A stretch of DNA of 64,000 nt, taken from NCBI GenBank assembly GCA_035480235.1, contig DATIHX010000008.1:26845-90844 (forward strand). The letters run 5' to 3'. Below are positions 1 through 31,196 of the stretch, in pieces. Position 1 is the stretch's first letter; the number at the start of each line of letters is the position of its first letter. The translations under genes were made by a program, and so were the position numbers. Under the pieces are notes generated by a model, which saw only the letters and a program-made list of their open reading frames with translations, was not told the origin of the DNA and made no database searches. Source of the stretch: Candidatus Saccharimonadales bacterium. Lineage in GTDB: Bacteria; Patescibacteriota; UBA1384; 2-12-FULL-50-11.

Positions 1-51
1 TCTCAACAGTTGTTAATGAACGTGGGGAATCATACCATATTATACCCGAAA

Positions 52-199
52 AGTCAAGGTCCTAACGGGTAATTTTGTAGTCTTCCAGCTTGTCTATTTC
101 TTCTTTAGTTTTGGCCTGGTAACTACATTGGGAACACTTAAAGCCCTCTTCATTCCTAATCATTGAACCTCGGCATTTGGGGCACTTTTTATACAGCAT
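52..199 (-). CDS. Small zinc-ribbon protein of about 48 aa (MLYKKCPKCRGS...CSQCSYQ).
   Basis: Unlisted short ORF with a CxxC-x16-CxxC motif. It lies inside the putative element and has no clear RBS. Confidence 0.3.
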
Positions 200-263
200 T
201 AACTCTTAATATCTCGGTAACAGGTAGGAAGTCAAATCTTAGAGTTATTAGAGATTTGCTACT

Positions 264-291
264 TGACAAACTATACATATATTTATAATAC
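264..291 (+). promoter_or_regulatory. Sigma70-like promoter (TTGACA 264-269, then TATAAT/TAATAC at 284-291) in an AT-rich block driving 325..2204.
   Basis: Hexamers are seen directly. A GGAGGG RBS precedes the ATG at 325. Confidence 0.4.
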
Positions 292-324
292 TATAATTAT
301 ATTTATAGTAACGATTGGAGGGAT

Positions 325-654
325 ATGCCAACGAAAGAAGCTACAATTCAGATCGCTAATCAAAGTCCGGCCTCGGCTAGTGAGGCTGCCTTATCTCTGA
401 ATCAGCCCCTTCTCGATCACTCCGGCTTCCAATCGATCGACACGGCGTTGCGCTCGATCTTCCCGACTACTCAGGAAGAAACGAAAGTCCAAAAAGCCCG
501 GGCTATCCTCCAAGAAGTTGCCGCTAATCTTTCCGACCAAGAGGTGGAAATCTTTATTACCGAACTCCAGTGCCTGATCGACTCCTGGTTCGACGTCTAT
601 GAGAAAGGCGTTTTTAACGGTTTGACGCTTAAAGAATTAATGAAAGGAGGGTAA
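325..654 (+). CDS. Hypothetical small acidic protein, translationally coupled to the serine recombinase. It could be an accessory or directionality factor.
   Basis: Good RBS. Its stop lies 2 nt before the recombinase ATG. Confidence 0.45.
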   Translation: MPTKEATIQIANQSPASASEAALSLNQPLLDHSGFQSIDTALRSIFPTTQEETKVQKARAILQEVAANLSDQEVEIFITELQCLIDSWFDVYEKGVFNGLTLKELMKGG

Positions 655-656
655 CC

Positions 657-2204: not shown

Positions 2205-2258
2205 ACCGGTCACCTCCTGACTGCCAGCCAGGCGCTCTACCAAATGAGCTAAGGGCCC
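2183..2258 (-). tRNA. tRNA-Ala (anticodon GGC).
   Basis: Cloverleaf read by hand on the minus strand: acceptor GGGCCCT with a G3:U70 pair, anticodon loop CTGGCAG, T-loop GGTTCAAGCC, and an encoded CCA. Confidence 0.85.
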
Positions 2259-2264
2259 GAGAAA

Positions 2265-2936
2265 CTACGAACCAATAATTTGTGAGATTATCTGCAACTC
2301 ATTATAAATGTTTGCCGAAAAGTAGTCTATACGGCAAACACCTTTGTAGGTTAGTTTGAGCGTGACCCTGCCGTGACTTCGGGCGTCAATTTGTGCATCG
2401 TAAAACTTTTCAAGGGGTATGCCAGTTATTTCTGACCAAAATTTCTCTAGTTCTTTGATGTTTTGATCGGCACGGCATTGAAGGGTGCAGCGAAATTTCG
2501 TTTCGTCGATTGGATAGCATTTTCTCAACAACTTTAGAAACAGTTTAATTATTTTTGGGTCGGAATTGCCAAACATTAAGCTACTTGGTTGCTTTCCGCC
2601 CTCAGTAAGATTGAGAATAGATAGGGCGATGAGCGCGGTTTGACGATCAGAACTAAGTTTATCGCTAAGATTGGCGTACTTATTGCTGATGCCCTGCAAA
2701 TACGCCGCTCGTTTCTTCCGAATTACTTCAAGGGCTTTCAGGCGATTAATGGCCAGTTTTTGGATATTTAGTTTATTTATTCTTGAGCGCTGATTATCAG
2801 CTAACCGAATATCGCTACACCAACCCGCGGCAGTACTTTTTGATACCGCTATATCTAGCTTCGAATTGATTTCAGCATACGTGAGCCCTTGCTTGCGCAA
2901 AGCTCGAAACTTAAATTTTACAGCCTCTGGCTCCAT
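2265..2936 (-). CDS. Hypothetical basic protein flanking tRNA-Ala.
   Basis: Intact 223-aa ORF with no recognisable motif. Confidence 0.45.
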   Translation of the reverse strand: MEPEAVKFKFRALRKQGLTYAEINSKLDIAVSKSTAAGWCSDIRLADNQRSRINKLNIQKLAINRLKALEVIRKKRAAYLQGISNKYANLSDKLSSDRQTALIALSILNLTEGGKQPSSLMFGNSDPKIIKLFLKLLRKCYPIDETKFRCTLQCRADQNIKELEKFWSEITGIPLEKFYDAQIDARSHGRVTLKLTYKGVCRIDYFSANIYNELQIISQIIGS

Positions 2937-2979
2937 AACCTAATCGTACTACAGAACCTTTAAATGTCACTAGAACAAT

Positions 2980-4647
2980 TCACCTAACCGCAGAAGCGGG
3001 AGTATTAGCAACAATCGGAGTCGAAGTTGGAGCGACAGATTCGGCTGGTTCATCAGCTTTCAAAATTAAGCTCTCGCCGGTCATTTCGGGCGACTTTTGA
3101 AGGTTAAATAGCGTGAGAATGGTTGGCGCGACATCAGACAGCGAACCGCCTTGACGTAACAGCCAGCCCTTCGCCACATCACCGGCAATAATAAACGGTA
3201 CAGGACTATTGGTGTGTTCAGTGTCTGGCTCGCCGGTTTTGGGGTTAACCATCTGCTCGACGTTGCCGTGGTCAGCTGTGACGATAAAAATACCGCCCAA
3301 CTTATTAACTGCGTCAAAAATTTGCTGCAAGCCCGCGTCCACTGCTTCACAAGCCTGGATGGCCGCTCGCAAATTGCCGGTGTGGCCGACCATATCGGGG
3401 TTGGCGTAATTGAGGACAATGAAATCATACTTGCCGAGGTTTTCCAAAACCGTTTTAGTGATCGCCGCGCTACTCATCGCCGGTACTTGGTCGTAACTGG
3501 GCACTTTCGGCGACGGAACGACGATCCGGTCTTCGCCGGTAAAAGCTTTTTCTTGGCCGCCGTTAAAAAAATAGGTGACGTGAGCGTATTTTTCGCTTTC
3601 GGCCACGTGAAGTTGCTTTAAACCAGCGGCTGAGAGCACACCGGAGAGCGGTAATTTAACATCTTTGGGTTTGAAGGCTACTTCCATCGGTAAACCCTCC
3701 TGGTAGTAAGTAAACCCGGCAAAATAAACATTTTGGAGGATTTTTTTGCGGTTAAAGCCGTCAAAATCCGGCTTCACAATGGCTTGGGTAATTTCCCGGG
3801 CCCGGTCGCCGCGGAAGTTAAAGAAAATTACCGAATCACCATCTTGAATCGGCACGAAGCTGTTATTCTCGCCCTGAATAACAGTTGGCGGAACGAACTC
3901 GTCGGAGAAACCGTCGCGGTAAGCAGCGGCCACCGCTGCCTCGGCGGTTTTGGCGCTGTTACCGACGCCTTCGGTCATCGCCCGGTAAACTTTTTCAATC
4001 CGCTCCCAGCGATGGTCGCGGTCCATGGCGTAGTAACGCCCTTCCACCGTACAAATCCGGCCAAAGCCGAGCTTTTTCAGGTTGGTAGCGACACGGGCTA
4101 AGTACTCTTCGGCGGCAAATGGCGCCGTATCGCGGCCGTCGGTGAAAGCGTGAATGCAGACGTTGGTAAATTCAACACTTTTGGCCATATCTAGCAACGC
4201 AAAGAGGTGGTCGATGTGGCTATGAATACCACCGTCGCTGCAAAGACCCATAATATGAACGGCCTTGCCGGCCGCTTTGGCATTAGTAAAGGCTTTGATT
4301 AGGACCGGATTTTTTAGAAAACTGCCGTCTTTGATAGCGGTAGTAATAGACGGAAATGCCTCTTGTACAACTTGGCCGCTACCGATATTTAAGTGGCCGA
4401 CCTCCGAGTTGCCGCGGTCGTGGTCTGGCAAGCCAACCGCCTCGCCGGAGGCAGCCAAAGTCGTGTATGGGAAGGTTTTAGTGGCCATATTCATAAACGG
4501 TGTGTGGGCCAAGGCCACGGCGTTACCGCCCCATTCCGGCGCTACCCCCCAGCCGTCCATCACGCAAAGGACAATTGGTCTCGGCCCAGCCGGAGAGCCA
4601 AGCTTACCAGCTTCGCTGGTCGCTATTGGTTTCGGCGGTTTAGGCAT
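2980..4647 (-). CDS. gpmI: 2,3-bisphosphoglycerate-independent phosphoglycerate mutase.
   Basis: iPGM signatures MGLCSDGGIHSH and ADHGN. It overlaps eno by 8 nt. Confidence 0.93.
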   Translation of the reverse strand: MPKPPKPIATSEAGKLGSPAGPRPIVLCVMDGWGVAPEWGGNAVALAHTPFMNMATKTFPYTTLAASGEAVGLPDHDRGNSEVGHLNIGSGQVVQEAFPSITTAIKDGSFLKNPVLIKAFTNAKAAGKAVHIMGLCSDGGIHSHIDHLFALLDMAKSVEFTNVCIHAFTDGRDTAPFAAEEYLARVATNLKKLGFGRICTVEGRYYAMDRDHRWERIEKVYRAMTEGVGNSAKTAEAAVAAAYRDGFSDEFVPPTVIQGENNSFVPIQDGDSVIFFNFRGDRAREITQAIVKPDFDGFNRKKILQNVYFAGFTYYQEGLPMEVAFKPKDVKLPLSGVLSAAGLKQLHVAESEKYAHVTYFFNGGQEKAFTGEDRIVVPSPKVPSYDQVPAMSSAAITKTVLENLGKYDFIVLNYANPDMVGHTGNLRAAIQACEAVDAGLQQIFDAVNKLGGIFIVTADHGNVEQMVNPKTGEPDTEHTNSPVPFIIAGDVAKGWLLRQGGSLSDVAPTILTLFNLQKSPEMTGESLILKADEPAESVAPTSTPIVANTPASAVR

Positions 4648-5854
4648 TCTTATTGGCGGTGAGTTGATCCTCGATAGTTAATAACCGGCGGTATTTGGTC
4701 ATTCTTTCCGGGTGAGCGTCGTTGGGCGCGCCGGTTTTAATAAACTGGGCGCCGATGCCAACGGCGAAATCGGCGATGTAGTCGTCTAATGTTTCGCCGG
4801 AGCGGTGCGAGACGATAATTACGTAACCAGCTTGGCGAGCCTGTTCAACAACTTGCAGCGTTTCAGTGAGGGTGCCGATTTGGTTAAGCTTCACTAAAAT
4901 CGCGTTAGCGGCATTCAACTCGATGCCTTTTTTCAGCCGCTCAGTGTTAGTGACGAATAAATCATCGCCAATCAGCAACAACTTTTTGTTACTAGCGTTC
5001 TGCTTGCTCATTTCGGAACGAAACTCTGCCCAGTTTTGCCAGTCTTCTTCACCGAACGGATCCTCCAGTGAGAGGATGGGGTAATCGTTAATTAAGCCGA
5101 TGTAGCGCTTGGTGGAGACTTCAAAGGTGGCCGGTAAGCTCGAGGCCGCCACGTCAAGAGCGAGCGAAATTTCATCCCAAGGCTTATAACCAGACTGTTT
5201 GATGGCTTGGAGAAGTAAATCCAGGGCGATCTCGTTAGTGTCCAGGTTAGGGGCGTAACCGCCTTCGTCACCGATCGGCACAAATGCCCCGTCGCCACGC
5301 AATATTTGGCCGAGCGTACTAAAAACCAGCTTACCGGCCGAAAGTTGGTTGTGATAACCAGCTACCTTGTCGGGCACCACCATAAACTCTTGCATATCGA
5401 GATTATTATCGGCGTGTTTGCCGCCGTTAATCAGGTTGAACATCGGAATAGGGACGGCAAAGCCCTTGCGGTGGTCTAGTTCACCGATGTACTGATAGAG
5501 CTCTATACCCTTTTCAGCGGCTGCGGCTCGCGATACCGCCAACGAAACGCCGAGCATCGTATTAGCGCCGAGTCGGTTTTTATCGTTGGTACCATCGAGT
5601 TTGATCATCGCCGCGTCAATCTCGGCCTGATCAAATGGGTCTTTGCCCTGCAAGAGCGGTAGAAATTGGTTCTTGATTATTTCCACCGACTTGGCAGGGT
5701 CTACAACTTTCGCCTCAAAAGTACCAACCGACTTGCCGGCCGGGATGGCGGCGGCGCCGGCTTTGCCGCCATCGGTTTCCACTGCCACTTGCAGCGTCGC
5801 ATCGCCGCGCGAGTCGTGGATCACCTCTCCAACAATGTGTTTAATTTTTGCCAT
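4640..5854 (-). CDS. eno: Enolase.
   Basis: MAKIKHIVGEVIHDSRG...SHRSGETEDDYIADFAV...KTGAPNDAHPERMTKY are classic enolase blocks. Confidence 0.95.
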   Translation of the reverse strand: MAKIKHIVGEVIHDSRGDATLQVAVETDGGKAGAAAIPAGKSVGTFEAKVVDPAKSVEIIKNQFLPLLQGKDPFDQAEIDAAMIKLDGTNDKNRLGANTMLGVSLAVSRAAAAEKGIELYQYIGELDHRKGFAVPIPMFNLINGGKHADNNLDMQEFMVVPDKVAGYHNQLSAGKLVFSTLGQILRGDGAFVPIGDEGGYAPNLDTNEIALDLLLQAIKQSGYKPWDEISLALDVAASSLPATFEVSTKRYIGLINDYPILSLEDPFGEEDWQNWAEFRSEMSKQNASNKKLLLIGDDLFVTNTERLKKGIELNAANAILVKLNQIGTLTETLQVVEQARQAGYVIIVSHRSGETLDDYIADFAVGIGAQFIKTGAPNDAHPERMTKYRRLLTIEDQLTANKNA

Positions 5855-5997
5855 AGCGTTAATTAATTCCCTCGCTTATTGTACTCAGCTGAGCTCTTCA
5901 CATTTTCCGATTCGAAATGCTCGCGCCGCTCGCCTCGAACCCGAAAAGGTTCGACATCGTGGATCACCTCTCCAACAATGTGTTTAATTTTTGTCAT
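5814..5997. repeat. 41-nt direct repeat with 1 mismatch: copy A at 5814-5854 is the eno start and copy B at 5957-5997 is the uORF start.
   Basis: tcgtggatcacctctccaacaatgtgtttaatttttg[c/t]cat occurs twice, 143 nt apart. Confidence 0.8.
5863..5997 (-). CDS. 44-aa uORF whose first 14 codons (MTKIKHIVGEVIHD) duplicate the enolase N-terminus. Its start overlaps the pgi/pmi stop (TGATG).
   Basis: Read directly from the sequence. The GAGGG at its 3' end serves as the eno RBS. Confidence 0.3.
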   Translation of the reverse strand: MTKIKHIVGEVIHDVEPFRVRGERREHFESENVKSSAEYNKRGN

Positions 5998-7016
5998 CAG
6001 ATTTTTTTGAGCGCTTCCTTTAGTGTAGCAATTTCTTCGACTGGCGTGGGGTCCACTCCGTAAACGCCGGCCAAATAATAGCTTAACAGGTCGCCGAAGT
6101 GGAGCAGTAACAATTGTTCACCAAGTTGACTACTGGATTGAACCGACAGTGGCACCACCGGAATCTGCTGGTTTTCAAAACTTTGGCTAACAACTTTCGC
6201 CCGCGCCACATTGCGGCTAAAGCTGTAGCTAGATTCTAGTAGTAAGACGGTTAATTTTTCGGGGATAGCGAATTCAAGACCGGCAATCAGGTTATGGCAG
6301 AGCTCCGGCAGGGCGGCCGGAAAAGCAGTGGTTTTACTGTTCTCGTTCAGTTGGGTGGCAAAACGGCGAGCCACCGCCCCTAGCGGCGCGGCGGCAGCGA
6401 TAATCGGCAACTCATTATTAAGGCTCATCGCCAGTGCCTCGGCTTTCGGCTCAAAGGTCCGTTTACTGATGCTGGAGCGAATTTCTTCGATGGCTCGGAA
6501 CAAATCGCCCTCCTTAAATGGGAAGTGGCCGGTTTTGGCCAGTGCCACCAGGAGCGAACCGTACAACTCGCCGATCGCCGCCCGGGGCGGCAGGTCGGGT
6601 TGCAATTTTACGACCGGAAGGCCGTGCATTTCCGCCAACCCCTCCATCTTACCGCCGCTGGTAATCACTAGCGCCGGTATTTTTCGCTCGGCTGCTTGTT
6701 TAACAGCGCTTAATGTTTCTTCGGTTTCGCCCGAGTAGCTAATGGCGATAAACAGAGTCTCGTCGTCGGCCCAGTGCGGCAAATTGTAATCGGCCCAAGT
6801 AAAAATAGGTGTCGGCGCAGCGGCAAATAATTCTTGGGCCAATGCGCCAGCGATGCCTGAGCCGCCCATACCGGCTATTAAAACTTGGTCAAATTCGTTC
6901 GGCAATGCCAAATCTTTTATCCAATGGGTCGTCCAGGTTTTTTCCAATTGATTCGGTAAATCCTGGATTTTTTCCAGCATTTTCCCGTCGTCGAGAACGA
7001 CTATCTGTTCAGACAT
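5997..7016 (-). CDS. Bifunctional phosphoglucose/phosphomannose isomerase family (SIS domains).
   Basis: Two SIS-like nucleotide-sugar phosphate binding blocks (GMGGSGIAG and ISYSGETEET), and glycolytic neighbours. Confidence 0.7.
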   Translation of the reverse strand: MSEQIVVLDDGKMLEKIQDLPNQLEKTWTTHWIKDLALPNEFDQVLIAGMGGSGIAGALAQELFAAAPTPIFTWADYNLPHWADDETLFIAISYSGETEETLSAVKQAAERKIPALVITSGGKMEGLAEMHGLPVVKLQPDLPPRAAIGELYGSLLVALAKTGHFPFKEGDLFRAIEEIRSSISKRTFEPKAEALAMSLNNELPIIAAAAPLGAVARRFATQLNENSKTTAFPAALPELCHNLIAGLEFAIPEKLTVLLLESSYSFSRNVARAKVVSQSFENQQIPVVPLSVQSSSQLGEQLLLLHFGDLLSYYLAGVYGVDPTPVEEIATLKEALKKI

Positions 7017-7221
7017 AAATTAACACTAACAATTTGTGGACCGGATGGGAATTGGACCCACTACTTCCTCAATGCGAATGAGGCGTTCTACCGATGAACT
7101 ACCGGCCCAGAATCATTTTGCCAGTAGTTCTTTCTCGCCTATTGGCTCGAAATGAACTACTGGCCCTTGGTTAGTTCCTACTGTAATTCTACCCTAAATA
7201 TTGATAGAATTAACTAGTTCT

Positions 7222-7305
7222 GCCGGAGTGGTGGAACGGTTTTACACGCACGACTCAAAATCGTGTGAGGGCAACCTCATGTGGGTTCGAATCCCACCTC
7301 CGGCA
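7222..7305 (+). tRNA. tRNA-Leu (anticodon CAA).
   Basis: Acceptor GCCGGAG/CTCCGGC, anticodon stem CACGA/TCGTG with loop CTCAAAA, long variable arm, T-loop GGTTCGAATCC. Confidence 0.85.
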
Positions 7306-7309
7306 CAGC

Positions 7310-8038
7310 ATGAAACAAGTGACCTTTGACGAAAACGACATCAAAAAAATAATTCGGGTGGATACAACGGCCCAAAAGTTTTGGCGGCGGTTTTGGTGGA
7401 CGATTCGCCAGGTCATCTACTTACTGGCGCTTTTTGTTTTCTTCTTTTACGCCTTAAACTACGCTGCCTACTTTAAGCGTTTCCAGTACGCGGTTGAAGC
7501 CAAACCGATTCAAAAAATCGCCATTGCTCCACCGCCCGCCCCAGCCGCCCCGCTACCCGATTACGCCCCAGAAGTGGATATCCCGAAAATTAACGTCAGT
7601 GCACCGTTACTAGTTAACGTCTCGGTGGCCGATATGTTGAGCCAGCTAACCAGCGGCGTGGTTCAATACCTGGATACGGCCCTGCCCGGCCAAACCGGCA
7701 ATATGGTGTTAGTGGGCCATTCGTCAAATTTCCCCTGGATTCACAGCCAATACAACACGGTTTTCGCCCTGGTCGATAAGCTAAGTGCCGGTGACCAAAT
7801 CATTGTGCCGTTTCACGCCCAAAAATATGTTTATGAAGTAACTAGCAGTAAAATTGTTAAACCCACCGACCTGGCCGTTTTAAATAAAACCGACACCCCA
7901 ACTCTGACGCTCTTAACCTGTTACCCAGTCGGCACCACCCGTAGCCGCTATATTGTGCTGGCCAAACTAGTGAGCGATAACGTTTCTGGCAGCCAAACAA
8001 GTGAACCGGCTACCGCTACGGTCCCGTCGCCGCGCTAG
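7310..8038 (+). CDS. Sortase family transpeptidase with an N-terminal membrane anchor.
   Basis: Catalytic His in LVGHSS and TLxTC Cys motif (TLTLLTCYP) plus a downstream Arg. The annotated upstream start overlaps the tRNA, so I place the start at ATG 7310. Confidence 0.8.
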   Translation: MKQVTFDENDIKKIIRVDTTAQKFWRRFWWTIRQVIYLLALFVFFFYALNYAAYFKRFQYAVEAKPIQKIAIAPPPAPAAPLPDYAPEVDIPKINVSAPLLVNVSVADMLSQLTSGVVQYLDTALPGQTGNMVLVGHSSNFPWIHSQYNTVFALVDKLSAGDQIIVPFHAQKYVYEVTSSKIVKPTDLAVLNKTDTPTLTLLTCYPVGTTRSRYIVLAKLVSDNVSGSQTSEPATATVPSPR

Positions 8039-8741
8039 GCATTAAAAGGTCGATTTCTTTAGCCGTGGGGCCGTCAAATATTGTTAGCTGCCAGTTGGCA
8101 GTATCGATATTGAAATTCAGCCGATCGCTAGAGCCGGCCTGGTAAATAGTAAAATCTTGGTTATTTTCAGCAAAAAAGAGGTGGAGTTCGTTGCCTTGTT
8201 GGTATAGATAGCTGGTGTCAAGCCGGTGGGCCTGAACAAGTGGGCTGGCGAAGCGGCTGACTAAACTGCCGAAATCGATCAGTTGGCCGTTTTGAAAAAC
8301 CAATCCAATATCAAACGGGCTATTCGGCCGGTAAACAGCCGCTGGAGCGTCGGTGATTTGCGGTTCTTGAGCGATTAAGATCGCTTTTTTCACGACCCCG
8401 GCTTGGCCGGGGGAGAGTTGGAAAATCCGGTCATACGGGTAGAAACCGGCTCTGGTGATGGCTAGGTCGTAACGGCCGCCCGGTAAGCCGTCTAAGGTAA
8501 TCGGTGTGGCATTACCAACCACTTTGCCGTTTAAGGCTACCGTCACGTCGCTTAAGGAATTATTGACGGCGATCACCGCGGTTGTTTCAAAGCTGCCAGT
8601 GGCCTTATCGAACCTCAAGCCGGTCGCCCAAACGATGGTAGTTAGGGTGATGACCAAGAAAAGGGCGGCGCCGACAAGCGAAATAATTAAACTAATTCGC
8701 CGTTGGCGTTTGGCGTAGCTCATTAATTTAGTATAGCGCAC
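8016..8741 (-). CDS. Membrane-anchored PEGA-domain protein.
   Basis: N-terminal TM helix. The PEGA-like block is NATPITLDGLPGGRYDLAITRAGFYPY. Confidence 0.55.
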   Translation of the reverse strand: MRYTKLMSYAKRQRRISLIISLVGAALFLVITLTTIVWATGLRFDKATGSFETTAVIAVNNSLSDVTVALNGKVVGNATPITLDGLPGGRYDLAITRAGFYPYDRIFQLSPGQAGVVKKAILIAQEPQITDAPAAVYRPNSPFDIGLVFQNGQLIDFGSLVSRFASPLVQAHRLDTSYLYQQGNELHLFFAENNQDFTIYQAGSSDRLNFNIDTANWQLTIFDGPTAKEIDLLMPSAATGP

Positions 8742-8788
8742 TTACTGGCCGTTGTTTCCAGGGAAAGGTTTGGTACAATGCCTCCAAG

Positions 8789-9796
8789 ATGTTACGTCGA
8801 GTGGGAGTGGATTTAGGCACTAATAATATCCTTATTTACGTACCCGGGCAGGGGATTGTGATCGACGAACCGGCCGTGGCGGCACTTGATGCCTACGACA
8901 ATAAAGTGGTGGCTTTCGGCGAAGAAGCCCGCAAAATGCTCGGTAAAACGCCGGACAGTATTATTGCAGCCCGACCTTTGCGCGACGGTGTGATCGCCAG
9001 CTTCAAAATTACCGAAGCGATGCTGCGCTATTTTATTAATAAACTCTCCGGCCGGGTTCGGTTGTTTCGGCCGGATATTATGGTAGCCGTGCCGGTCGGG
9101 GCCACTTCTACCGAGCGCCGGGCCGTCATTGACGCCTGCGTCGCGGCTGGCGCCAAAAACGCCTACATCATTAAAGAACCGGTCGCGGCGGCGCTTGGCG
9201 CGGCTGTCCCGATTACTACCGCCGAAGGCCACTTAATTATTGATATCGGCGCCGGCACCACCGAAGTCGCCGTGATTTCTTTGGGCGATGTAGTGGCCGC
9301 TACCTCAGTCCGGGTCGGCGGCAACAAAATGGATGTAGCGATCGCCAACTTCATCCGCAAAAAATATTCGCTGATTATCGGCGAGCCGACGGCCGAAAAC
9401 CTCAAAATCAAAATCGGGACGGCGATGCCGCTGAAAAAAGAACTGACGATGGAACTCTCCGGCGCCAACTCGGTGACCGGATTGCCGGAATCGGTCTTGG
9501 TTAACTCAACTGATGTAATGACCGCCGTTCAGGAAGAACTGAAAGAAATTATCGGCGCCGTCAAATCGGTCTTGCAAAAAACGCCGCCGGAATTGGCCGC
9601 CGACATTATGGACAAAGGTATGATTATGACCGGTGGGGGATCGATGCTGAAAAACCTCGACGCCTTATTTACGAAAGTTACCGGCGTGCCCTGCCAGCTG
9701 GCCGAAGAACCGCGGCTCTGTGTGGTTAAAGGTACTGGTATCGCCGTGGAACACCTGGACGAATACGTGAGGTCGGTCTTTTGGACGAAGCGTTAA
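8789..9796 (+). CDS. mreB: Rod-shape determining actin homolog MreB/Mbl.
   Basis: VGVDLGTNN...ARPLRDGVIA...IDIGAGTTEVAV blocks. Confidence 0.9.
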   Translation: MLRRVGVDLGTNNILIYVPGQGIVIDEPAVAALDAYDNKVVAFGEEARKMLGKTPDSIIAARPLRDGVIASFKITEAMLRYFINKLSGRVRLFRPDIMVAVPVGATSTERRAVIDACVAAGAKNAYIIKEPVAAALGAAVPITTAEGHLIIDIGAGTTEVAVISLGDVVAATSVRVGGNKMDVAIANFIRKKYSLIIGEPTAENLKIKIGTAMPLKKELTMELSGANSVTGLPESVLVNSTDVMTAVQEELKEIIGAVKSVLQKTPPELAADIMDKGMIMTGGGSMLKNLDALFTKVTGVPCQLAEEPRLCVVKGTGIAVEHLDEYVRSVFWTKR

Positions 9797-10335
9797 CTTA
9801 CAGTCTTTAGAACTTTTTCAGCTACTTGTTTTGGGCTTAATCCGTCAGTTTCAATAACTATCTCCCCCCTGTAGTTTACCGAGGGTTTATCTTTAAGGTA
9901 CTTATCGAGATCGGTACGATTACTAATCCTATAGTTTTCGTTTCTTCTGGAGACGCGCTTTGCAAGCGTCTCGTATGGCGCAGCGAGCGTAACAACTAAA
10001 AACCTATAGTTAGGGAACTTCTCAACCGCACGACGGGCAATATTAATAGTTTTTGGATCTGGCGATGGACGAACATAGATTATGTTCTGGTTTTGAGCGA
10101 GTAGAAATTTTATTACAGGTAGAGTAACTTGATCCATCAACTTTGGGATTCGATGTTCTTCAACAATGTCAAAAATAATATTTTTAAGCTCATGAAACCA
10201 GAATAGTTTCCAACTTAGCGTCTTTTGAATAATTCTGGCGACTGTGATTTTTCCCACGCCAGGTTCACCACGTAAATAAAGAAAGGTTCTTCTTTTATCA
10301 ATCTTCATCTGACCAAACGTAACAAAACTCCCCAA
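9793..10335 (-). CDS. P-loop NTPase, nucleoside/nucleotide-kinase-like.
   Basis: Walker A GEPGVGKIT near the N-terminus and small size. Confidence 0.5.
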   Translation of the reverse strand: MGSFVTFGQMKIDKRRTFLYLRGEPGVGKITVARIIQKTLSWKLFWFHELKNIIFDIVEEHRIPKLMDQVTLPVIKFLLAQNQNIIYVRPSPDPKTINIARRAVEKFPNYRFLVVTLAAPYETLAKRVSRRNENYRISNRTDLDKYLKDKPSVNYRGEIVIETDGLSPKQVAEKVLKTVS

Positions 10336-10467
10336 AAAAAGAAATTTTAGGTATCAACTTCCGGGCTGACGCTCGGCTAAGTTGGATGCTTCAATTCAGC
10401 TCGCTAACACTCGCTAATTGAAGCTATACTACGTATATGTTAGTCTCTCTTCTAGAAAGATGACTTT

Positions 10468-11574
10468 ATGATAAACAGTGGCCTCCTTATTGGCATTGAC
10501 GCTTCACGGGCGGTAAAAGCAAACCCCACTGGCACGGAGTATTATTCGCGCGAAATTATTCGGGCCATTCTGGAGCTGGACCGTCGGAACCAATACCGGC
10601 TTTATGCTCACAAAATGCCAGACAGCAGTTTTGGAGAATATTCTAACGTCGAGTGGAAGATTATCCCGCCTGGCCGGCTTTGGTCGCAATTGAAACTAGC
10701 GGCTGAACTGAAAAAAAGTTCGCCAGACGTTCTATTCGTGCCGGCGCACGTTGTGCCGCTGCTCTCCAACGTCCCAACCGTCGTCACCATTCACGGCTTA
10801 GAATTCTTGTACGCTCCCCAAAATTACGGCCACCGCGAGCGAGCTTATTTAAAATTTTCTACGGCTAGCTCAATCAGTAAAGCGCGCCAAGTGATCGCCC
10901 CTAGCCATTGGACCAAACAAGACATCTTGAAGCATTATCATTGCCCGGCTGGGAAAATTACCGTTATCGCCGAGGCCTACAACAAAGAGCTCTACAACAC
11001 GAACGGCGAAGCGGGGGAGCGGCCGATCAAAGAACCGTACATATTCTCGCTCTCCCGGCTCGAAGAACGGAAAAACCAAGCTTTGCTGGTGGAGGCTTTT
11101 GCGCTGCTGCGTAAAGAAAAAGGCGACGTCAAGCTGGTTCTGGGCGGCAAGCCGGGTTACGGTTTTGAGAAAATCCGCGCCAAGATTGATGCGCTGCCGG
11201 CTACTATTCGTGATTCGGTGTTATTACCGGGCTATTTGAGCGAAACCGACGCCGCTAATTACCTCCGCCACGCCGCCGTTTTTGCCTACCCGTCCAAATA
11301 CGAAGGTTTCGGCATCCCGATGCTTGAAGCCTTTGGCTCGGGTACGCCGGTCGTGGCCAGTAACGCCTCGTGCTTACCGGAAGTGGCCGGTGAGGCAGCG
11401 GTCTTGCTGCCGCCAGATAACGCCCTCAGTTGGGCCGCCGCCTTTAGCCGAATCTTGCACCAGCCCAAATACGCCGAGGAGCTAAAAGCTAAAGGCCTGA
11501 AACGAGCCAGCGAGTTTTCTTGGGCAAGCGCAGCCGAAGCAACACTAATAGTCATCGAAAATGCTGCAGCGTGA
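10468..11574 (+). CDS. GT-B glycosyltransferase (family 4/1 type).
   Basis: C-terminal EGFGIPMLEAFGSGTPVVAS (EX7E) block. Confidence 0.85.
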   Translation: MINSGLLIGIDASRAVKANPTGTEYYSREIIRAILELDRRNQYRLYAHKMPDSSFGEYSNVEWKIIPPGRLWSQLKLAAELKKSSPDVLFVPAHVVPLLSNVPTVVTIHGLEFLYAPQNYGHRERAYLKFSTASSISKARQVIAPSHWTKQDILKHYHCPAGKITVIAEAYNKELYNTNGEAGERPIKEPYIFSLSRLEERKNQALLVEAFALLRKEKGDVKLVLGGKPGYGFEKIRAKIDALPATIRDSVLLPGYLSETDAANYLRHAAVFAYPSKYEGFGIPMLEAFGSGTPVVASNASCLPEVAGEAAVLLPPDNALSWAAAFSRILHQPKYAEELKAKGLKRASEFSWASAAEATLIVIENAAA

Positions 11575-12283
11575 CCGCGTCCGGCTGCTGGGTGTTCGAG
11601 TCGATAGCCTCACTTGGGCCGATTTCGACCGTTGGGCAGAGCAAGCCTTGAGCGGTAACGAAGCTAATCAAGTAGTAACCGTCAACGGCGAACACATTTT
11701 GGCGGCTAATCGCGACCCAAAACACCAAGCGGCGATAAACCAAGCTGATTTGGTCGTGCCAGACTCAACAAATGTTTTGTGGGTTAGTCGTGTCAAAGGC
11801 AGGGGACTGGCCCAGAAAACTGCGGGGGTGGATTTGGTTTTACGGCTTTGCGACATCGCTGCCAAAAACGGCAATTCGATTTTTTTACTCGGCAGCCAGC
11901 CTGGCGTTGCCGACCACGCCGCTAAAAAATTAAAAAGTTGGTTCCCGACGTTAACGATTGCCGGCACTAGCGCCGCGGACCCAAACGACGATTATGCTTT
12001 AAAAAGCATAAAGCAGAGTGGCGCCGATATTGTTTTAGTGGCGTATGGGGCGCCGGCGCAGGAGTATTGGATCGCCGAACACAAAAACGAAACTGGAGCG
12101 AAAATCTTGGTGGGCGTCGGCGGGACCTTCGACATTTTGTCTGGTACTTTACCGCGGGCACCGAAGTTTTTCCGAGCCCTGCAGCTAGAATGGCTCTGGC
12201 GATTAATTTTGCAGCCATCCCGGATTAAACGTATCTGGAACGCCGTCGTCGTTTTCCCCACTAAAGCGTTGTTTAGTAAATAA
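11561..12283 (+). CDS. WecB/TagA/CpsF-family glycosyltransferase.
   Basis: VTVNGEHI...DLVVPDS...LLGSQPGVA...VGVGGTFD blocks. It overlaps the preceding GT, forming a polysaccharide or teichoic-acid-type pair. Confidence 0.85.
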   Translation: MLQRDRVRLLGVRVDSLTWADFDRWAEQALSGNEANQVVTVNGEHILAANRDPKHQAAINQADLVVPDSTNVLWVSRVKGRGLAQKTAGVDLVLRLCDIAAKNGNSIFLLGSQPGVADHAAKKLKSWFPTLTIAGTSAADPNDDYALKSIKQSGADIVLVAYGAPAQEYWIAEHKNETGAKILVGVGGTFDILSGTLPRAPKFFRALQLEWLWRLILQPSRIKRIWNAVVVFPTKALFSK

Positions 12284-27093: not shown

Positions 27094-28260
27094 ATGGACG
27101 AATTTAACCCAGCGACCCGGCCACCCGAAACCAGCCAACCGCTCAAACACTCTCGTTTCAAAGCCTGGCTGGCGGCCCGGAAAAAGTTATTACTGATTAC
27201 TGTGCCGATTATTAGCTTGGTAATAGTGCTGGCAGTTTTTTGGTCAATTAATAATAACCAACCGGTCAGTAGCGGCCAAATCAAAATAAAAACGACGACC
27301 CCAACCCCAGCTGTGAAAGTAGCCAGTCCGCTTACTGGCCTCTTAATCGACGCCGACACGGCTAAGAAACCCGTCGCAGCCGTGATGATCGAGAACTCCA
27401 CCGACGCTCGGCCACAATCCGGTTTGAGCCAAGCTGGTGTGGTCTACGAAGCGATCGCCGAGGGCGGCATCACTCGTTATATGGCCTTGTTCCAAGAGCC
27501 GTTTCCGTCCGTTTTAGGCCCAGTCCGGAGTGTGCGGCCGTATTACGCCGACTGGGTGAGCGAGTACAACGTGCCGATCGTTCATGCCGGTGGCAGCCAA
27601 CCGGGGCTGGCCAAAGTGAATAGCGGCAGTTTTAAAAATGTTGAGGCATTGGTTCAAGCCAGCGGTTTTTACCGCGCCACCGACCGAGCCGCGCCGCACA
27701 ATTTGTATACCAAAACCGATTTGTTGGCTAATTTGCTGACCAAAATGAAATTTGACGCTGCTCCCGCCTTCACTGGCTTGGCCCGCAAAGACGATAAGCC
27801 ACCGGTCGCCACCACCACGCCAGCCACCGCCACCGTTCCGGCCAGTACCGTCCCAGCGGCGGCCGCTCACCCGAAAATTAACATTACCTTCGGTATCGCC
27901 GCCTATAACGTCCAGTACGATTACGATTTAGCGACCAATAGTTACAAACGAACAAACGGCGCCGCGGCGACCATCGACCGCAACACCAACGCTCAAGTCA
28001 GCGTCAAAAACGTGGTCGTCCTGCAGTTCCCAGTTAGTTATAGTACCCAAGGCAACGGCAAGCCGGAAACAATTTACAAACTAACAGGAAGCGGCAAAGC
28101 CTTCTTCTTTATGGACGGCAACGCCGTGGTGGGCACCTGGAGCAAAACCAGCGACACCGCTATTACTACTTACGCCGACGCTAACGGCACTGCCATCACC
28201 TTTAACCGCGGCAATACTTGGATTTCCGCCATCCCCACCGGCAACGCCGTGACGTATTAA
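27094..28260 (+). CDS. DUF3048 (YerB-like) secreted or lipo-protein.
   Basis: VMIENSTDARPQSGLSQAGVVYEAIAEGGITRYMALF block. Confidence 0.75.
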   Translation: MDEFNPATRPPETSQPLKHSRFKAWLAARKKLLLITVPIISLVIVLAVFWSINNNQPVSSGQIKIKTTTPTPAVKVASPLTGLLIDADTAKKPVAAVMIENSTDARPQSGLSQAGVVYEAIAEGGITRYMALFQEPFPSVLGPVRSVRPYYADWVSEYNVPIVHAGGSQPGLAKVNSGSFKNVEALVQASGFYRATDRAAPHNLYTKTDLLANLLTKMKFDAAPAFTGLARKDDKPPVATTTPATATVPASTVPAAAAHPKINITFGIAAYNVQYDYDLATNSYKRTNGAAATIDRNTNAQVSVKNVVVLQFPVSYSTQGNGKPETIYKLTGSGKAFFFMDGNAVVGTWSKTSDTAITTYADANGTAITFNRGNTWISAIPTGNAVTY

Positions 28261-28298
28261 GAAGCTACTAGCTTCTGGCAACTAGCTTTAGGGCTAGT

Positions 28299-28322
28299 AA
28301 AAAACTGCCGATTGCTCGGCAG
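28299..28322 (-). terminator. Intrinsic terminator for 28329..29045: CTGCCGAG-caa-TCGGCAG + TTTTTT as read on the minus strand.
   Basis: Seen directly. Confidence 0.6.
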
Positions 28323-28328
28323 TGATAG

Positions 28329-29045
28329 TTAGTAAACAGCCTTAGCTAACAGCGCTGCGCTCTGGCCATCGTAAGCACTGTAGAGCAAGTCAATTTGCCC
28401 GGCTTCAAAACCGGCAAATTCCTCACCCCTTGGACCAGACACTCGCTGCACCAGCTCGGCAAATGTCCCGTAGGCTTCCGTAAGACCGAAGAAGCATTGA
28501 CGAAGCGTTGCCCCTGCCGAGTCCGTAAACTCAAAAGGAGAGCCTATAAATTCAAAGCCCTGGCAGCCAATTGCCTTGCGGACCTGCTCTAGATCGGCGC
28601 TCTCGTCTACGCGATAGGCGAGATGCTGAGGCTTGCCGGGAAAGAGCTCGCCACCGTCACCGCCGACACAGTGAGTGCCGTATAGGCGTAGGAAGTTTGA
28701 TAGGGGTGCGTCGTGTTGCAAATCCTCCAAGTTCGGCACCGAGAGTCCAATCATTGGCTGCCCAGCTTTGTGGGCAAGGGCAATATGCCGAGCTGGATAG
28801 ATCATCGTCCGCCAAACGCCAGCAAGGTCATAACCACGCCCTTGCCAATAATCACCGAATGCTTTTTCCATGTCGGGGTGAACAACGAATGTTAGGTGAT
28901 CTTCCATCGTTACCCCTTTTACTTCTTCTTTTAGAAGCGGGAGGGCGGGAAGGGACGAAAACCGCCCTAAAAGATATTGCATTGAACCACTAAGCATTTT
29001 TCCTCCAAATTGTTCGCCGTTACCAGCAAGAACGAATTGAGGCAA
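28329..29045 (-). CDS. VOC (glyoxalase/dioxygenase-fold)-like protein, tentative.
   Basis: Two beta-alpha-beta-beta-beta-like repeats. The gene looks GC-richer than its surroundings. Confidence 0.45.
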   Translation of the reverse strand: MPQFVLAGNGEQFGGKMLSGSMQYLLGRFSSLPALPLLKEEVKGVTMEDHLTFVVHPDMEKAFGDYWQGRGYDLAGVWRTMIYPARHIALAHKAGQPMIGLSVPNLEDLQHDAPLSNFLRLYGTHCVGGDGGELFPGKPQHLAYRVDESADLEQVRKAIGCQGFEFIGSPFEFTDSAGATLRQCFFGLTEAYGTFAELVQRVSGPRGEEFAGFEAGQIDLLYSAYDGQSAALLAKAVY

Positions 29046-29382
29046 TAATAAACCAATTTCTGGATAAAATCAACTCCTTGCCGCCCATAAAATAGTTCCT
29101 AAAACCGGAGGAGCAAACAGTGCCAGTTGCCGGTTTGCAGCCGGAGGTTTTCACAATACCCCAGTGGGAAGCTTGCGGGGGTGAGAAAGCGAATGCTTGG
29201 AGCTTTCGAACGGAAGCCGCTGCAAAAGTTATAATTTTTCCCTAGCTTTTGCCAAGCGGCGAGCGAGTAGCCAGGAGTTTGAGTGTGTAGGGGGCGGCTT
29301 AGCAAATTAGCCCCCTCACCCTCAAATAATAGTCAGTGGCGCTAGCCACATACAGATAGTGAGAAACACTATTCTGGTTTCC

Positions 29383-29409
29383 AAAAAGGACCCATTCGGG
29401 TCCTTTTTG
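29383..29409 (-). terminator. Bidirectional hairpin terminator AAAAA-GGACCC-attc-GGGTCC-TTTTT downstream of the Rpf-like gene.
   Basis: Seen directly. Confidence 0.6.
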
Positions 29410-29427
29410 TTTCAGTTCTTAACAACT

Positions 29428-30123
29428 TCAGCCGACGTAGCGCGCCCAGCAAGAACGACTAGCGTTCCAGGGGGCGGTACCGCGCAACTGCAGCGCTTGG
29501 CTAGCCTTTTGATCTTGAATTTCAGCCGGTGCGTCCTTAGCTCTCTGGTAACCACCGAAGCGGGCCCAGGTCGAGTCGAGGAACTGATAAGCGCCGGAGG
29601 CGCTAGAGCGGCGATTTTGGGCCTGATAATCGTTACGGCTTTCGCAGTAACGAATAGCGGCTAACATATCGCCCTGCGGCTTAGCGGCAACTGGCGTAGT
29701 GATGGCTTTTTTGGCGACAGCTTGCGCAGCTGCTTGCTTAACCGCTTCTGAGGCTTTCAGGCGAGCTTGCTCATCCAAATACAGCGAGCTCGGCGTGACT
29801 TCGATACTAATTGCCCGAGCACCACTAACTTCCGCTACTTGCGGCGTTAAGGCTTGCACCGTCGGCATTGGGCCAAAGGCTTGAACGCCGGCTACGGTGG
29901 TGGTAATCGGCGAAGTGGAAGCGGCGCTAACCAGCGTCATCGGCAAGATGAGCGTGGTAGCTAACACGACATAACCGACATAACGTAAGCTCTTGGCTTT
30001 GTTAAGATTGCGTTTGGTTCGAACGAACTGAACTTTACCAGCCTTAAAGATCCGGCCGGCAACCCTCCCTGTATTTTCGACGATTAAGTCGAGAATAATA
30101 GGGATAGTATAAATACTAATCAA
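29428..30123 (-). CDS. Secreted Rpf-type (resuscitation-promoting-factor-like) lytic transglycosylase domain protein.
   Basis: IRYCESRNDYQAQN...GAYQFLDSTWARFGG...APWNASRSCW matches the Rpf transglycosylase-like fold, with the catalytic Glu in CES and a C-terminal Cys pair. N-terminal TM/signal region present. Start codon uncertain. Confidence 0.75.
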   Translation of the reverse strand: MISIYTIPIILDLIVENTGRVAGRIFKAGKVQFVRTKRNLNKAKSLRYVGYVVLATTLILPMTLVSAASTSPITTTVAGVQAFGPMPTVQALTPQVAEVSGARAISIEVTPSSLYLDEQARLKASEAVKQAAAQAVAKKAITTPVAAKPQGDMLAAIRYCESRNDYQAQNRRSSASGAYQFLDSTWARFGGYQRAKDAPAEIQDQKASQALQLRGTAPWNASRSCWARYVG

Positions 30124-30304
30124 CTCCTTTTTAATTTGCCCACTTGGGGCGGTTCCGAATATGACGCTTCAAGGCGTTCGTTACCGAACGGCTAACAAAA
30201 AGCTTCCTTTCGGAAGTATGGGCAGTATAGCTGATTGGGAAAGCTTGTCAAGCCTTTGGGGGTAAAGTAAGACCCCGGACGAACCGGGGCCGAATGCTTA
30301 GGAG

Positions 30305-30487
30305 CTAGGTCCGAACCATTTCCTTGCGTCCCTCCGGCGCGTCACGTCCGAACATGCCCTCGTAATCCCTGCCAGTTGGCGTGTAGGTGGTGAAATTTGG
30401 CCCCTTGGGAACTTGGCACAGGCCCAGCTGCTTAACCATCTCATACACTTTCGAGCTATTAACTCGCCCCTGACTATTATTATCCAT
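30305..30487 (-). CDS. Small 60-aa protein with a strong RBS.
   Basis: GGAGGG lies 7 nt upstream of the ATG. Confidence 0.35.
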   Translation of the reverse strand: MDNNSQGRVNSSKVYEMVKQLGLCQVPKGPNFTTYTPTGRDYEGMFGRDAPEGRKEMVRT

Positions 30488-30659
30488 CGAATTACCCTCC
30501 TGGTAATTTTTAGTGCGAAGCAACGCCAGGATAGCATATGCCGTCCTTAAAGTCAAGGCCATTGCCTTAAATTTAACGTCCCTCGTTACGCACTTTCAAT
30601 ATTTTAACCGCTTTCTATTGCCGGCGAAAGAAAAAGCCCCGCCGAAACGGGGTGGTGGC

Positions 30660-31196
30660 TTAGGGTTTGAGCCGGCGAGAAGCCTGGAGGCGCCAACCAT
30701 CACCGCTCTCGAGGTAAACCTCGATCGAAACGATGGGAACCTTAGTCGGTTCGAATTCGCCGTTTGTTTGGACGTAGTTTTCTAACCAGGCCTGGGATGC
30801 CGCCGCTGTGAGGTCTTTGGCTACCGCTACGTGAAAATCAAAAAGAAAGGCTGGGTTAACGTAGCGATTGAGTTGATCAACGCAACGTTCCCGGATTAGG
30901 TCCAGCTCCGCGCAATGCCCAACCTTTAGCGAAACCACCCGGCTAGTTTCGTCGGCATTGGGATGTTCTTTTAGCCCAACGAGCGCCAGCGAAAACGGTT
31001 GCACACCCTGAATAGCATAATCAACAACCTCAATAACCTCTTGAGCTGGTTGGTGGAAACCCTCACTCGGCGCATCAGATACTTCAATAGGGTGAATGAT
31101 GGTCACATGCCGCGGCAAGTTGCCAGCTTCGGGCCGTAATCCTTCCCGGAGAAACTTGGCTGGGCAGTCACAACAGATATAAACTTTTTGGCTCAC
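30660..31196 (-). CDS. 2H phosphoesterase (LigT/ThpR-like) family, tentative.
   Basis: Two H-x-T/S-x-like motifs (HVTI, HVAV). Confidence 0.4.
   Translation of the reverse strand: MSQKVYICCDCPAKFLREGLRPEAGNLPRHVTIIHPIEVSDAPSEGFHQPAQEVIEVVDYAIQGVQPFSLALVGLKEHPNADETSRVVSLKVGHCAELDLIRERCVDQLNRYVNPAFLFDFHVAVAKDLTAAASQAWLENYVQTNGEFEPTKVPIVSIEVYLESGDGWRLQASRRLKP

Follow-up and report, generated by a model that had tools for sequence, protein, structure and literature searches.

A probably long-resident Rpf-family muralytic enzyme gene and its conserved 5' leader in a narrow clade of Candidatus Saccharimonadales

The window analyzed here is a 64,000-nucleotide (nt) stretch of contig DATIHX010000008.1 (assembly GCA_035480235.1) from a Candidatus Saccharimonadales metagenome-assembled genome (MAG), and the gene under study lies on its reverse strand and encodes a protein of the Rpf (resuscitation-promoting factor) family of peptidoglycan-cutting enzymes. 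We consider it probable that this Rpf-like gene has long resided in the chromosome of a narrow Saccharimonadales clade as a monocistronic unit, with a proposed role in the organism's own wall and an old origin among Actinomycetota or phages. The evidence for this comes from the domain and topology of the protein, from gene order shared with a distantly diverged relative, from ordinary base composition and from a promoter and structured leader conserved among orthologs. An original prediction, made from the letters of the window, had instead described positions 28329 to 30487 as a GC-richer patch that might have been acquired horizontally from an actinobacterial host; its guess that the DNA came from Saccharibacteria or another lineage of the candidate phyla radiation (CPR) agrees with the source MAG. 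The Rpf-like protein is 100% identical to an NCBI "transglycosylase family protein" of a Ca. Saccharimonadales MAG, and the gene is already known under this automatic annotation. Its parts, numbered in amino acids (aa), are as follows.

29428..30123, reverse strand: Rpf-family (PF06737) muralytic enzyme gene, 231 aa, TTG start
29986..30123, reverse strand: basic N-terminal tail, aa 1 to 46, predicted to be cytoplasmic, with nine K/R and two D/E; conserved in the orthologs P0002 and L082
29917..29985, reverse strand: single hydrophobic segment, aa 47 to 69, ending in VSA/AS; putative signal anchor or long signal peptide
29671..29916, reverse strand: Ala/Thr/Val/Pro-rich linker, aa 70 to 151 (~80 residues)
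29431..29670, reverse strand: catalytic lysozyme-like Rpf domain, aa 152 to 231, with Glu161 in CES, Cys160/Cys225 and the SASGAYQFLDSTW block

The protein scored above the gathering cutoff of PF06737 (38.4 bits versus 27, E = 2e-9), with residues 154 to 220 spanning positions 7 to 75 of the 77-position profile. The Rpf transglycosylase-like domain and all of the motifs listed for it in the original prediction were recovered: CES at residues 160 to 162, GAYQF at 177 to 181, TW at 185 and 186, GG at 190 and 191, APW at 217 to 219, and Cys225. The CES motif aligns with the CES of Mycobacterium tuberculosis RpfC (2n5z/4ow1) and with the CEA of RpfB (3eo5). The QF..TW..GG block and the C-terminal cysteine likewise align with the RpfC and RpfB structures, with Cys225 falling on the C-terminal cysteine of RpfB. 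E161, S162, ASGAYQ, W186, W219, and C225 were unchanged across 21 homologs, and Cys160 and Cys225 may form a disulfide that brackets the domain. In the RpfC equivalog test (NCBIfam NF046107), the protein reached 28.1 bits where 200 are required. It is a member of PF06737 and an ortholog of no named Rpf (RpfA to RpfE).

Compared with the actinobacterial Rpf proteins (Micrococcus luteus Rpf and M. tuberculosis RpfA to RpfE), the window protein is alike in passing the Pfam threshold, in the glutamate of CES, in the xxQF..TW..GG pattern and in the disulfide cysteines, and also in carrying a small, exported lysozyme-like domain at the C terminus (export being a prediction here). Unlike them, it has no LysM, G5, or DUF348 domain, possesses a 46-aa cytoplasmic tail and a transmembrane anchor and belongs to the phylum Patescibacteria. 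The domain also represents a sub-type with the signature CES...(S/T)ASGAYQFLDSTW...GG...A.DAP..QD...GT.PW.ASRSCW, in which the S/T-ASGAYQFLDSTW...DAP..QD...GT.PW.ASRSCW portion contrasts with the GNGYYGGLQF...AWP.CG of named Rpf proteins.

The basic 46-aa N terminus is followed by one hydrophobic segment, with a Kyte-Doolittle peak of 1.88 at aa 49 to 67, and the protein is therefore predicted to be exported or membrane anchored, in line with the secreted protein proposed originally. This prediction uses the Kyte-Doolittle segment and its AXA-like end. Within the tail, the motif I(S/R)IYTIP..GRVA..LNK..LRYVGY is kept in the P0002 and L082 proteins. The TTG at 30123, which NCBI also annotates, is the start codon because in-frame stops lie upstream of it in all three orthologs; peptide conservation among the three begins at residue 2. 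An upstream extension of the open reading frame (ORF) or a separate leader peptide was ruled out by these stops together with a 4-nt indel between orthologs. For the ortholog P0003 (L082 626 to 1298), the public gene call (160 aa, beginning MTLVNA) is too short; read from the conserved TTG, the L082 ORF encodes 221 aa and shares its N-terminal tail and anchor with the window protein.

Close orthologs are few. Among 5.8 billion proteins, three were found, namely, the window protein itself, P0002 (locus L001 of the relative GCA_034680565.1), and P0003 (locus L082). The window and L001 share the order 2H phosphoesterase, small ORF, Rpf-like gene, a one-gene slot, DUF3048, and, farther on, the CCA-adding enzyme, and both carry HIT, glyoxalase, rpsU, yqeY, ybeY, ftsA, and ftsZ on the other side. 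P0002 is 62% identical to the window protein over the BLAST alignment and 68% identical over aligned residues in a codon-aware comparison, and the latter value (0.68) falls inside the range of the flanking genes (0.55 to 0.93). Four-fold degenerate sites of the window and L001 are 42 to 61% identical, which is near saturation. In a site-absence test, L001 proved to carry the Rpf-like gene at the syntenic site and L082 to carry the same leader, while the gene next to it in the window, encoding a protein like those of the vicinal oxygen chelate (VOC) superfamily, was absent from the corresponding slot of L001. Given the shared synteny, a divergence of the Rpf-like gene similar to that of its flanks, and the saturated synonymous sites, the Rpf-like gene was already in place in the common ancestor, and any acquisition of it is therefore old. 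It is the VOC-like gene in the slot, not the Rpf-like gene, that is the variable element.

The base composition of the region is ordinary. The GC content of positions 28329 to 30487 is 0.521 versus 0.510 for the window, placing the patch at the 72nd percentile of all 2,159-bp windows, and the GC enrichment claimed for it was not borne out. Nor did the two genes differ from their surroundings in codon use. Relative to 57 ORFs, the Rpf-like gene had z scores of +1.0 for GC, -0.3 for GC at third codon positions (GC3), and -0.4 for the leave-one-out codon log-likelihood, and the corresponding values for the VOC-like neighbor were +0.6, -1.1, and -1.2. Actinomycetota loci with the same Rpf sub-type have a median GC content of 0.68, versus 0.52 to 0.54 here. 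No integrase, transposase, or other mobility gene was found among the neighbors of the Rpf-like gene, the Rfam scan of the window placed the nearest tRNAs more than 20 kb from the patch, and a direct-repeat search around it returned short chance-level repeats only. The neighbors encode DUF3048, the CCA-adding enzyme, 2H phosphoesterase, HIT, DUF218, glyoxalase, Ham1, YqeY, YbeY, and FtsA/FtsZ, and since such housekeeping genes surround the Rpf-like gene, a prophage context was rejected. An inverted repeat (29325 to 29341 and 30465 to 30481; 17 nt, 16 of 17 positions matching) flanks the stretch made up of the Rpf-like gene, leader, and promoter. We discarded it as a possible boundary of an element, since it is not conserved in L001; such a repeat is close to chance expectation for a 6-kb region.

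Transcription signals were located as follows.

30224..30251, reverse strand: sigma-70-type promoter, TTGACA-16-TATACT, 11 of 12 positions matching; conserved in L001 and L082
30100..30220, reverse strand: structured 5' leader that reaches into the first eight codons; conserved, with the long hairpin P1-P3, P4, and a Shine-Dalgarno helix
29382..29409, reverse strand: intrinsic-terminator hairpin after the Rpf stop codon, readable on both strands; compensatory changes in L001
28304..28323, reverse strand: terminator-like hairpin after the VOC-like gene
30271..30291, reverse strand: terminator-like hairpin after the small ORF, parting the small ORF from the Rpf promoter

The terminators said to bracket the patch do exist at its borders, but a hairpin is also found between the genes. 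As hairpins come after every gene here, each gene is its own transcription unit, and the hairpins mark transcription units rather than the boundary of an island.

The promoter, leader, and terminator of the Rpf-like gene are all conserved in L001, and the promoter and leader are conserved also in L082 (stretches compared: window 30100 to 30251, reverse strand; L001 7938 to 8093; L082 508 to 656). From the promoter to codon 8, nucleotide identity is 87% between the window and L001, and the two are 79% and 78% identical to L082. For comparison, DNA identity is 44% in the small-ORF region, 66% in the Rpf coding sequence, and 82 to 84% in ftsA/ftsZ. The leader comprises a long three-part hairpin (P1-P3) capped by a GNRA loop and a smaller hairpin (P4); in its final helix, GGAG pairs with codons 6 to 8, which would occlude the Shine-Dalgarno sequence. 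All three leaders independently reached the same minimum free energy fold (z = -1.9, -2.9, and -3.9). In the covariation analysis, 93.5% of cells were paired versus 35 to 49% with the partners slid, and three compensatory pairs were found in the apical stem versus none in the slid controls.

Searches of the window with Rfam 15 at gathering score returned three distant tRNAs and no riboswitch, and at an E value of ≤10 over positions 28200 to 30800, only chance-level matches were obtained; ydaO-yuaA was included and did not match. A covariance model of the leader (R1), run against 85 sources that took in all other Rpf-like loci of Saccharibacteria, Actinomycetota, and phages, recovered only its three training sequences, and it yielded no additional copies in 88 loci. 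A metagenome scan with a 21-nt leader anchor, GGAGTTGATTAGNATTTATAC, gave three loci, all of them unrelated chance matches. The leader of ~120 nt is a candidate new cis-regulatory RNA with three known copies. In Streptomyces and other Actinobacteria, a ydaO-type riboswitch for cyclic di-AMP controls rpfA and other wall hydrolases (PMC10117811), so that there is precedent for the regulation of an Rpf gene through its leader. The resemblance lies in a conserved, structured 5' leader ahead of an Rpf-family gene and is a regulatory analogy only; unlike ydaO, the window leader has no match to RF00379 even at an E value of ≤10, is shorter (~100 nt), has a different architecture, and is represented by three examples. 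It would go considerably further to propose that the leader is a new class of regulatory RNA, acting as a riboswitch or by binding a protein, that gates translation of a muralytic enzyme drawn from the host/phage pool and deployed at the epibiont-host interface, and we regard this as unlikely.

The wider relatives of the Rpf-like domain were collected by scanning 185,579 species-representative genomes with the strict pattern S[TS]ASGAYQF, which gave 147 confirmed relatives. About 73 of the best 80 of these loci belong to Actinomycetota, consistent with the original description of the family as typical of that phylum, while 5 belong to Saccharibacteria and 1 is a contig from a "Blastocatellia" MAG. 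The Actinomycetota carriers among the best 80 are mostly Acidimicrobiia and also include Dermacoccus, Micrococcus, Ornithinimicrobium, and others. In an unrooted neighbor-joining tree (84 sequences, 86 columns, 300 bootstraps), the three orthologs form a window clade with a bootstrap of 99 (99 to 100 across the trees built). The other Saccharibacteria copies fall into the groups L004+L080 (54%) and L038+L068+L069 (92%), the latter nested with one Actinomycetes and one Microthrixaceae sequence at a bootstrap of 100, and all Saccharibacteria groups sit inside a 98% clade whose remaining members are Actinomycetota. The Saccharibacteria copies differ in indels and in architecture (membrane-anchored CES, lipoprotein HES, and insertion-bearing types), and no synteny common to the groups was found in the loci compared. 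The original prediction had named uniform composition, together with clustering among vertically inherited CPR homologs, as evidence that would speak against acquisition. The composition is indeed uniform and the orthologs with shared synteny do form a clade of their own, but beyond this clade, the relatives are phage or actinobacterial and the Saccharibacteria copies are polyphyletic.

Members of the L038/L068/L069 group (the same as L088 7001 to 7411) are predicted lipoproteins of ~136 aa in which HES replaces CES, an insertion follows the catalytic motif, and GTGC stands at the C terminus. Judged by its placement in the tree, this group appears to be the best example of an independent transfer between phyla.

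The nearest domains outside the ortholog clade (55 to 61% identity) come both from Actinomycetota and from the phage contigs L002, L083, L089, and L090, and P0199, another close sequence, lies in a typical actinobacterial chromosome. Domains on the four phage contigs are 55 to 58% identical to that of the window protein, and the best actinobacterial identity in the domain is ~56%. The window protein is also matched by transglycosylase and tape-measure families of PHROG, and the catalytic domain is shared with phage Rpf-like lysins and tape-measure motifs (PHROG 4067 and 6090). The phage versions differ in being shorter (120 to 170 aa) or fused to CHAP, whereas the window gene is chromosomal, stands in a housekeeping setting, has a host-type promoter and leader, and has no phage genes nearby. 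Contigs L002, L083, and L089 have GC contents of 0.44 to 0.53, nearer to Saccharibacteria than to typical Actinomycetota. Taken together, an old exchange among Actinomycetota, phages, and Saccharibacteria is plausible from these sequence relationships.

The contig labeled as a Blastocatellia MAG (L002; JACCVY010000269.1, positions 1 to 12225; GC, 0.44) is a phage and not an Acidobacteriota chromosome, and it was probably mis-binned. It carries genes for a large terminase, an exonuclease, an M23 endolysin, and a holin-like ORF, and its 257-aa protein fuses the Rpf-like domain to a CHAP-like C terminus. L083 encodes a DnaD-like loader and an exonuclease; L089 encodes M23, a T4-type RNA ligase/PNKP, and Rad52; and L090 encodes a tail collar protein, a primase, and an SNF2 helicase. 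The Rpf-like proteins of these three contigs are small (120 to 175 aa), and their genes stand beside replication and recombination genes, outside a classical lysis cassette. L002 and L083 have the exonuclease family phrog_298 in common, in both cases near the Rpf-like gene.

In the mechanism that we propose, the window protein would be a single-pass, N-in membrane-anchored enzyme, or would be freed by signal peptidase, and its flexible linker of ~80 residues would bear the C-terminal Rpf-type lysozyme-like domain. By analogy with the Rpf family, this domain would cut the glycan strands of peptidoglycan with Glu161 as the catalytic acid and would be stabilized by the Cys160-Cys225 disulfide. 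The gene would be transcribed from its own sigma-70-type promoter, and the structured leader would probably restrain expression through the pairing of the Shine-Dalgarno sequence with codons 6 to 8. The most likely job of the enzyme would be the controlled remodeling of the cell's own Gram-positive-type wall in growth and division, and action on a host wall is possible. The own-wall role is favored by context, that is, because of the conserved cytoplasmic tail and anchor and the setting among housekeeping and division genes, and a part in cutting a host wall would be compatible with the long linker and the patchy distribution. The gene probably entered the Saccharimonadales lineage from an Actinomycetota/phage pool before the window organism and GCA_034680565.1 split, and it would since have fully taken on the composition of the genome. 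The VOC-fold neighbor would be an unrelated occupant of a variable slot.

Other histories were also considered. The original idea, a recent and compositionally foreign patch of the Rpf-like and VOC-like genes from an actinobacterial host, bracketed by terminators, is very improbable. Actinomycetota do dominate the sub-type, hairpins do flank the genes, and the VOC-like gene is indeed missing from the slot in L001. However, GC, GC3, and codon use are ordinary and remote from the high GC content of the Actinomycetota loci, the Rpf-like gene is syntenic together with its promoter, leader, and terminator in a genome that has diverged to synonymous saturation, mobility genes, nearby tRNAs, and meaningful repeats are missing, identity to the best actinobacterial domain is low, and the two genes travel separately. 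Of the horizontal acquisition proposed originally, the recent host-to-epibiont island is thus unsupported, while an older transfer from Actinomycetota or phages is plausible. An ancestral CPR gene, inherited vertically in Saccharimonadia and lost from most lineages without any transfer, would fit the uniform composition, the synteny with L001 and L082, and the enrichment of the KEGG Rpf orthologue K21688 in oral Patescibacteria that a preprint with a catalogue study reports (10.1101/2025.03.10.642329). It is nevertheless distinctly unlikely, as the Saccharibacteria copies form at least three groups with differing indels and architectures, one of them nested with Actinomycetes and Microthrixaceae at 100, the groups have no common synteny, and the sub-type occurs in very few Saccharibacteria species.

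Two further possibilities deserve more weight, though each is still rather unlikely. The gene could be a domesticated phage lysin or virion-associated hydrolase that was captured and then given an anchor and host-type regulation. The phage domains among its nearest non-ortholog relatives adjoin the window clade in the neighbor-joining trees, and the PHROG matches and the GC contents of L002, L083, and L089 point the same way. However, the bootstrap for a phage sister group is ≤21%, chromosomal copies of Actinomycetota are nearly as similar (56%), and no prophage remnants were found around the Rpf-like gene. Alternatively, the exported enzyme could be directed at the host, nicking actinobacterial peptidoglycan at the contact site for attachment, nutrient uptake, or the transfer of DNA or protein. 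The Rpf enzyme family is tuned to walls of the actinobacterial type, which counts for such a tool, as do the predicted export signal with its ~80-aa flexible linker and the patchy, accessory distribution of the gene (the three close orthologs among 5.8 billion proteins and five other species-level matches in Saccharibacteria). Cultured Saccharibacteria are described in one source as epibionts of Actinomycetota (PMC8080830). Against a host-directed role, the conserved cytoplasmic tail and anchor suit a cell-bound housekeeping hydrolase, and the gene is surrounded by housekeeping and division genes; no type IV secretion system, pili, or other machinery for cell contact is associated with it in the ±6 kb around it.

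Several observations weigh against our preferred reading of a long-resident, own-wall gene of old Actinomycetota/phage origin with its own regulatory leader. The TTG start abuts the GGAG, an unusually tight spacing. The strict search pattern skews the sample of taxa, and the tree is an unrooted neighbor-joining tree of 79 to 86 columns, with which the opposite direction of transfer is compatible. In an enlarged tree of 245 sequences, including 160 metagenomic ones, every node deeper than the window clade had a bootstrap of ~0%, and donor and direction are therefore not fixed by this domain and method. As for the leader, 27 of 500 column shuffles matched its covariation score, which was computed from three sequences only, and it rests on these three sequences, as no further members turned up in the searches.

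The genes and spacers that flank the Rpf-like gene are the following.

28329..28997, reverse strand: VOC-fold protein (HPPD/HmaS C-domain-like), 222 aa, NCBI hypothetical protein VLE93_01865
28998..29427, reverse strand: intergenic region with blocks kept in L001, for example GGCAACTGGCACTGTTT at ~29114 to 29131
30305..30487, reverse strand: small ORF, 60 aa, with an AGGAGG ribosome-binding site; fast-evolving, position conserved

The VOC-like neighbor is 100% identical to VLE93_01865 of a Ca. Saccharimonadales MAG. Single-sequence searches of it against Pfam, NCBIfam, and, with phmmer, the PDB gave no match, and its homologs number 1 among 5.8 billion proteins (48% identity) and 43 by profile among 1.84 billion representatives. 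At E = 2.4e-4, a profile of 28 sequences matched the C-domain of HPPD over a stretch that takes in the QH-A and F-E--QR motifs, and 5 of the 28 touched the Pfam family Glyoxalase_4 at E values of ≥2.4e-4. Modeling with AlphaFold2 from a two-sequence alignment was unusable (predicted local distance difference test score [pLDDT], 47). The model from the 28-sequence alignment, which was used, has a pLDDT of 93.5 and shows the strand-helix order E-H-E-E-E twice, that is, two beta-alpha-beta-beta-beta modules. The top Foldseek matches of this model were hydroxymandelate synthase/HPPD and methylmalonyl-CoA epimerase (E of ~3e-9, probability of 1.00). Thus, the "VOC-like" label given in the original prediction agrees with the profile, the model, and Foldseek, and the modeled neighbor is a VOC-fold protein of a very small family without a name. 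Across the 28 sequences, H71, Q124, and R185 are invariant, and H34, H125, and E181 are at least 90% conserved; H125 and E181 align with the QH-A and F-E-QR motifs of HPPD. These conserved residues include the candidates for metal ligands of the His/His/Glu type. The neighbor resembles the C-domain of HPPD/HmaS in its two modules (Foldseek E of ~3e-9, TMq of 0.63), in the histidine of QH(I/L)A, in the glutamate of F.E..QR, and in C-terminal helix motifs, and it differs from HPPD in that it lacks the N-terminal domain of that enzyme and consists of one 222-aa domain, with an identity of 15 to 18%.

The slot between the Rpf-like gene and DUF3048 holds the 222-aa VOC-like gene in the window and a gene for an unrelated 128-aa membrane protein in L001. 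The one close homolog of the neighbor is found at L084 5001 to 5720, between rpsU and HIT, and the VOC-like gene thus occupies different slots of the ftsZ-to-DUF3048 neighborhood in different genomes. Since the neighbor is missing from the slot in L001 and its homolog is placed elsewhere, the Rpf-like and VOC-like genes are not a co-transferred cassette. The 430-nt spacer from the Rpf stop codon to the next gene (28998 to 29427) is 56% identical to that of L001, in a patchy manner. Its conserved blocks are the terminator hairpin, TTTCTCACTATCTGTATGTGGCTAGCGCCACTGA, and GGCAACTGGCACTGTTT, and they are kept although the downstream gene differs in L001. The spacer probably holds the promoter and 5' untranslated region of the downstream slot, and it may otherwise contain a small RNA.

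The small ORF has counterparts at L001 7614 to 7811 and L082 245 to 442 (60 to 65 aa), in each case between the 2H phosphoesterase gene and the Rpf promoter. The small ORFs are nearly unalignable overall and have the motif N[FY][ST]x[YW]xPxG[RQ][DE] in common, and no family match was found. Elsewhere in the window, the real outlier in composition is a gene at 9793 to 10335 (reverse strand; GC of 0.387, z = -3.7; GC3 of 0.35; codon z = -2.1), whose product has weak AAA_18/shikimate-kinase-like matches. A second outlier, at 2265 to 2936 (reverse strand), has a GC content of 0.418 (z = -2.8) and no Pfam match. Recent acquisition is more plausible for these two genes than for the flagged patch.

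To our knowledge, little is known about how Saccharibacteria handle their own wall or that of a host. Our literature search on Rpf in Saccharibacteria and CPR bacteria turned up no description of an Rpf-type enzyme from Saccharibacteria and one catalogue-level mention, the K21688 enrichment noted above. One Saccharimonadales clade stably retains an Rpf-type glycan-cutting enzyme of a sub-type that is otherwise found in Actinomycetota and phages. The gene is a concrete candidate for old gene flow among host, phage, and epibiont, and it encodes a testable enzyme; with the false compositional signal corrected, it is no fresh island. For follow-up, its leader is of greater importance; it is better conserved than the DNA of ftsZ between genomes whose silent sites are saturated. 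If the leader is a true regulatory RNA, it would be a rare, lineage-specific example in CPR bacteria.

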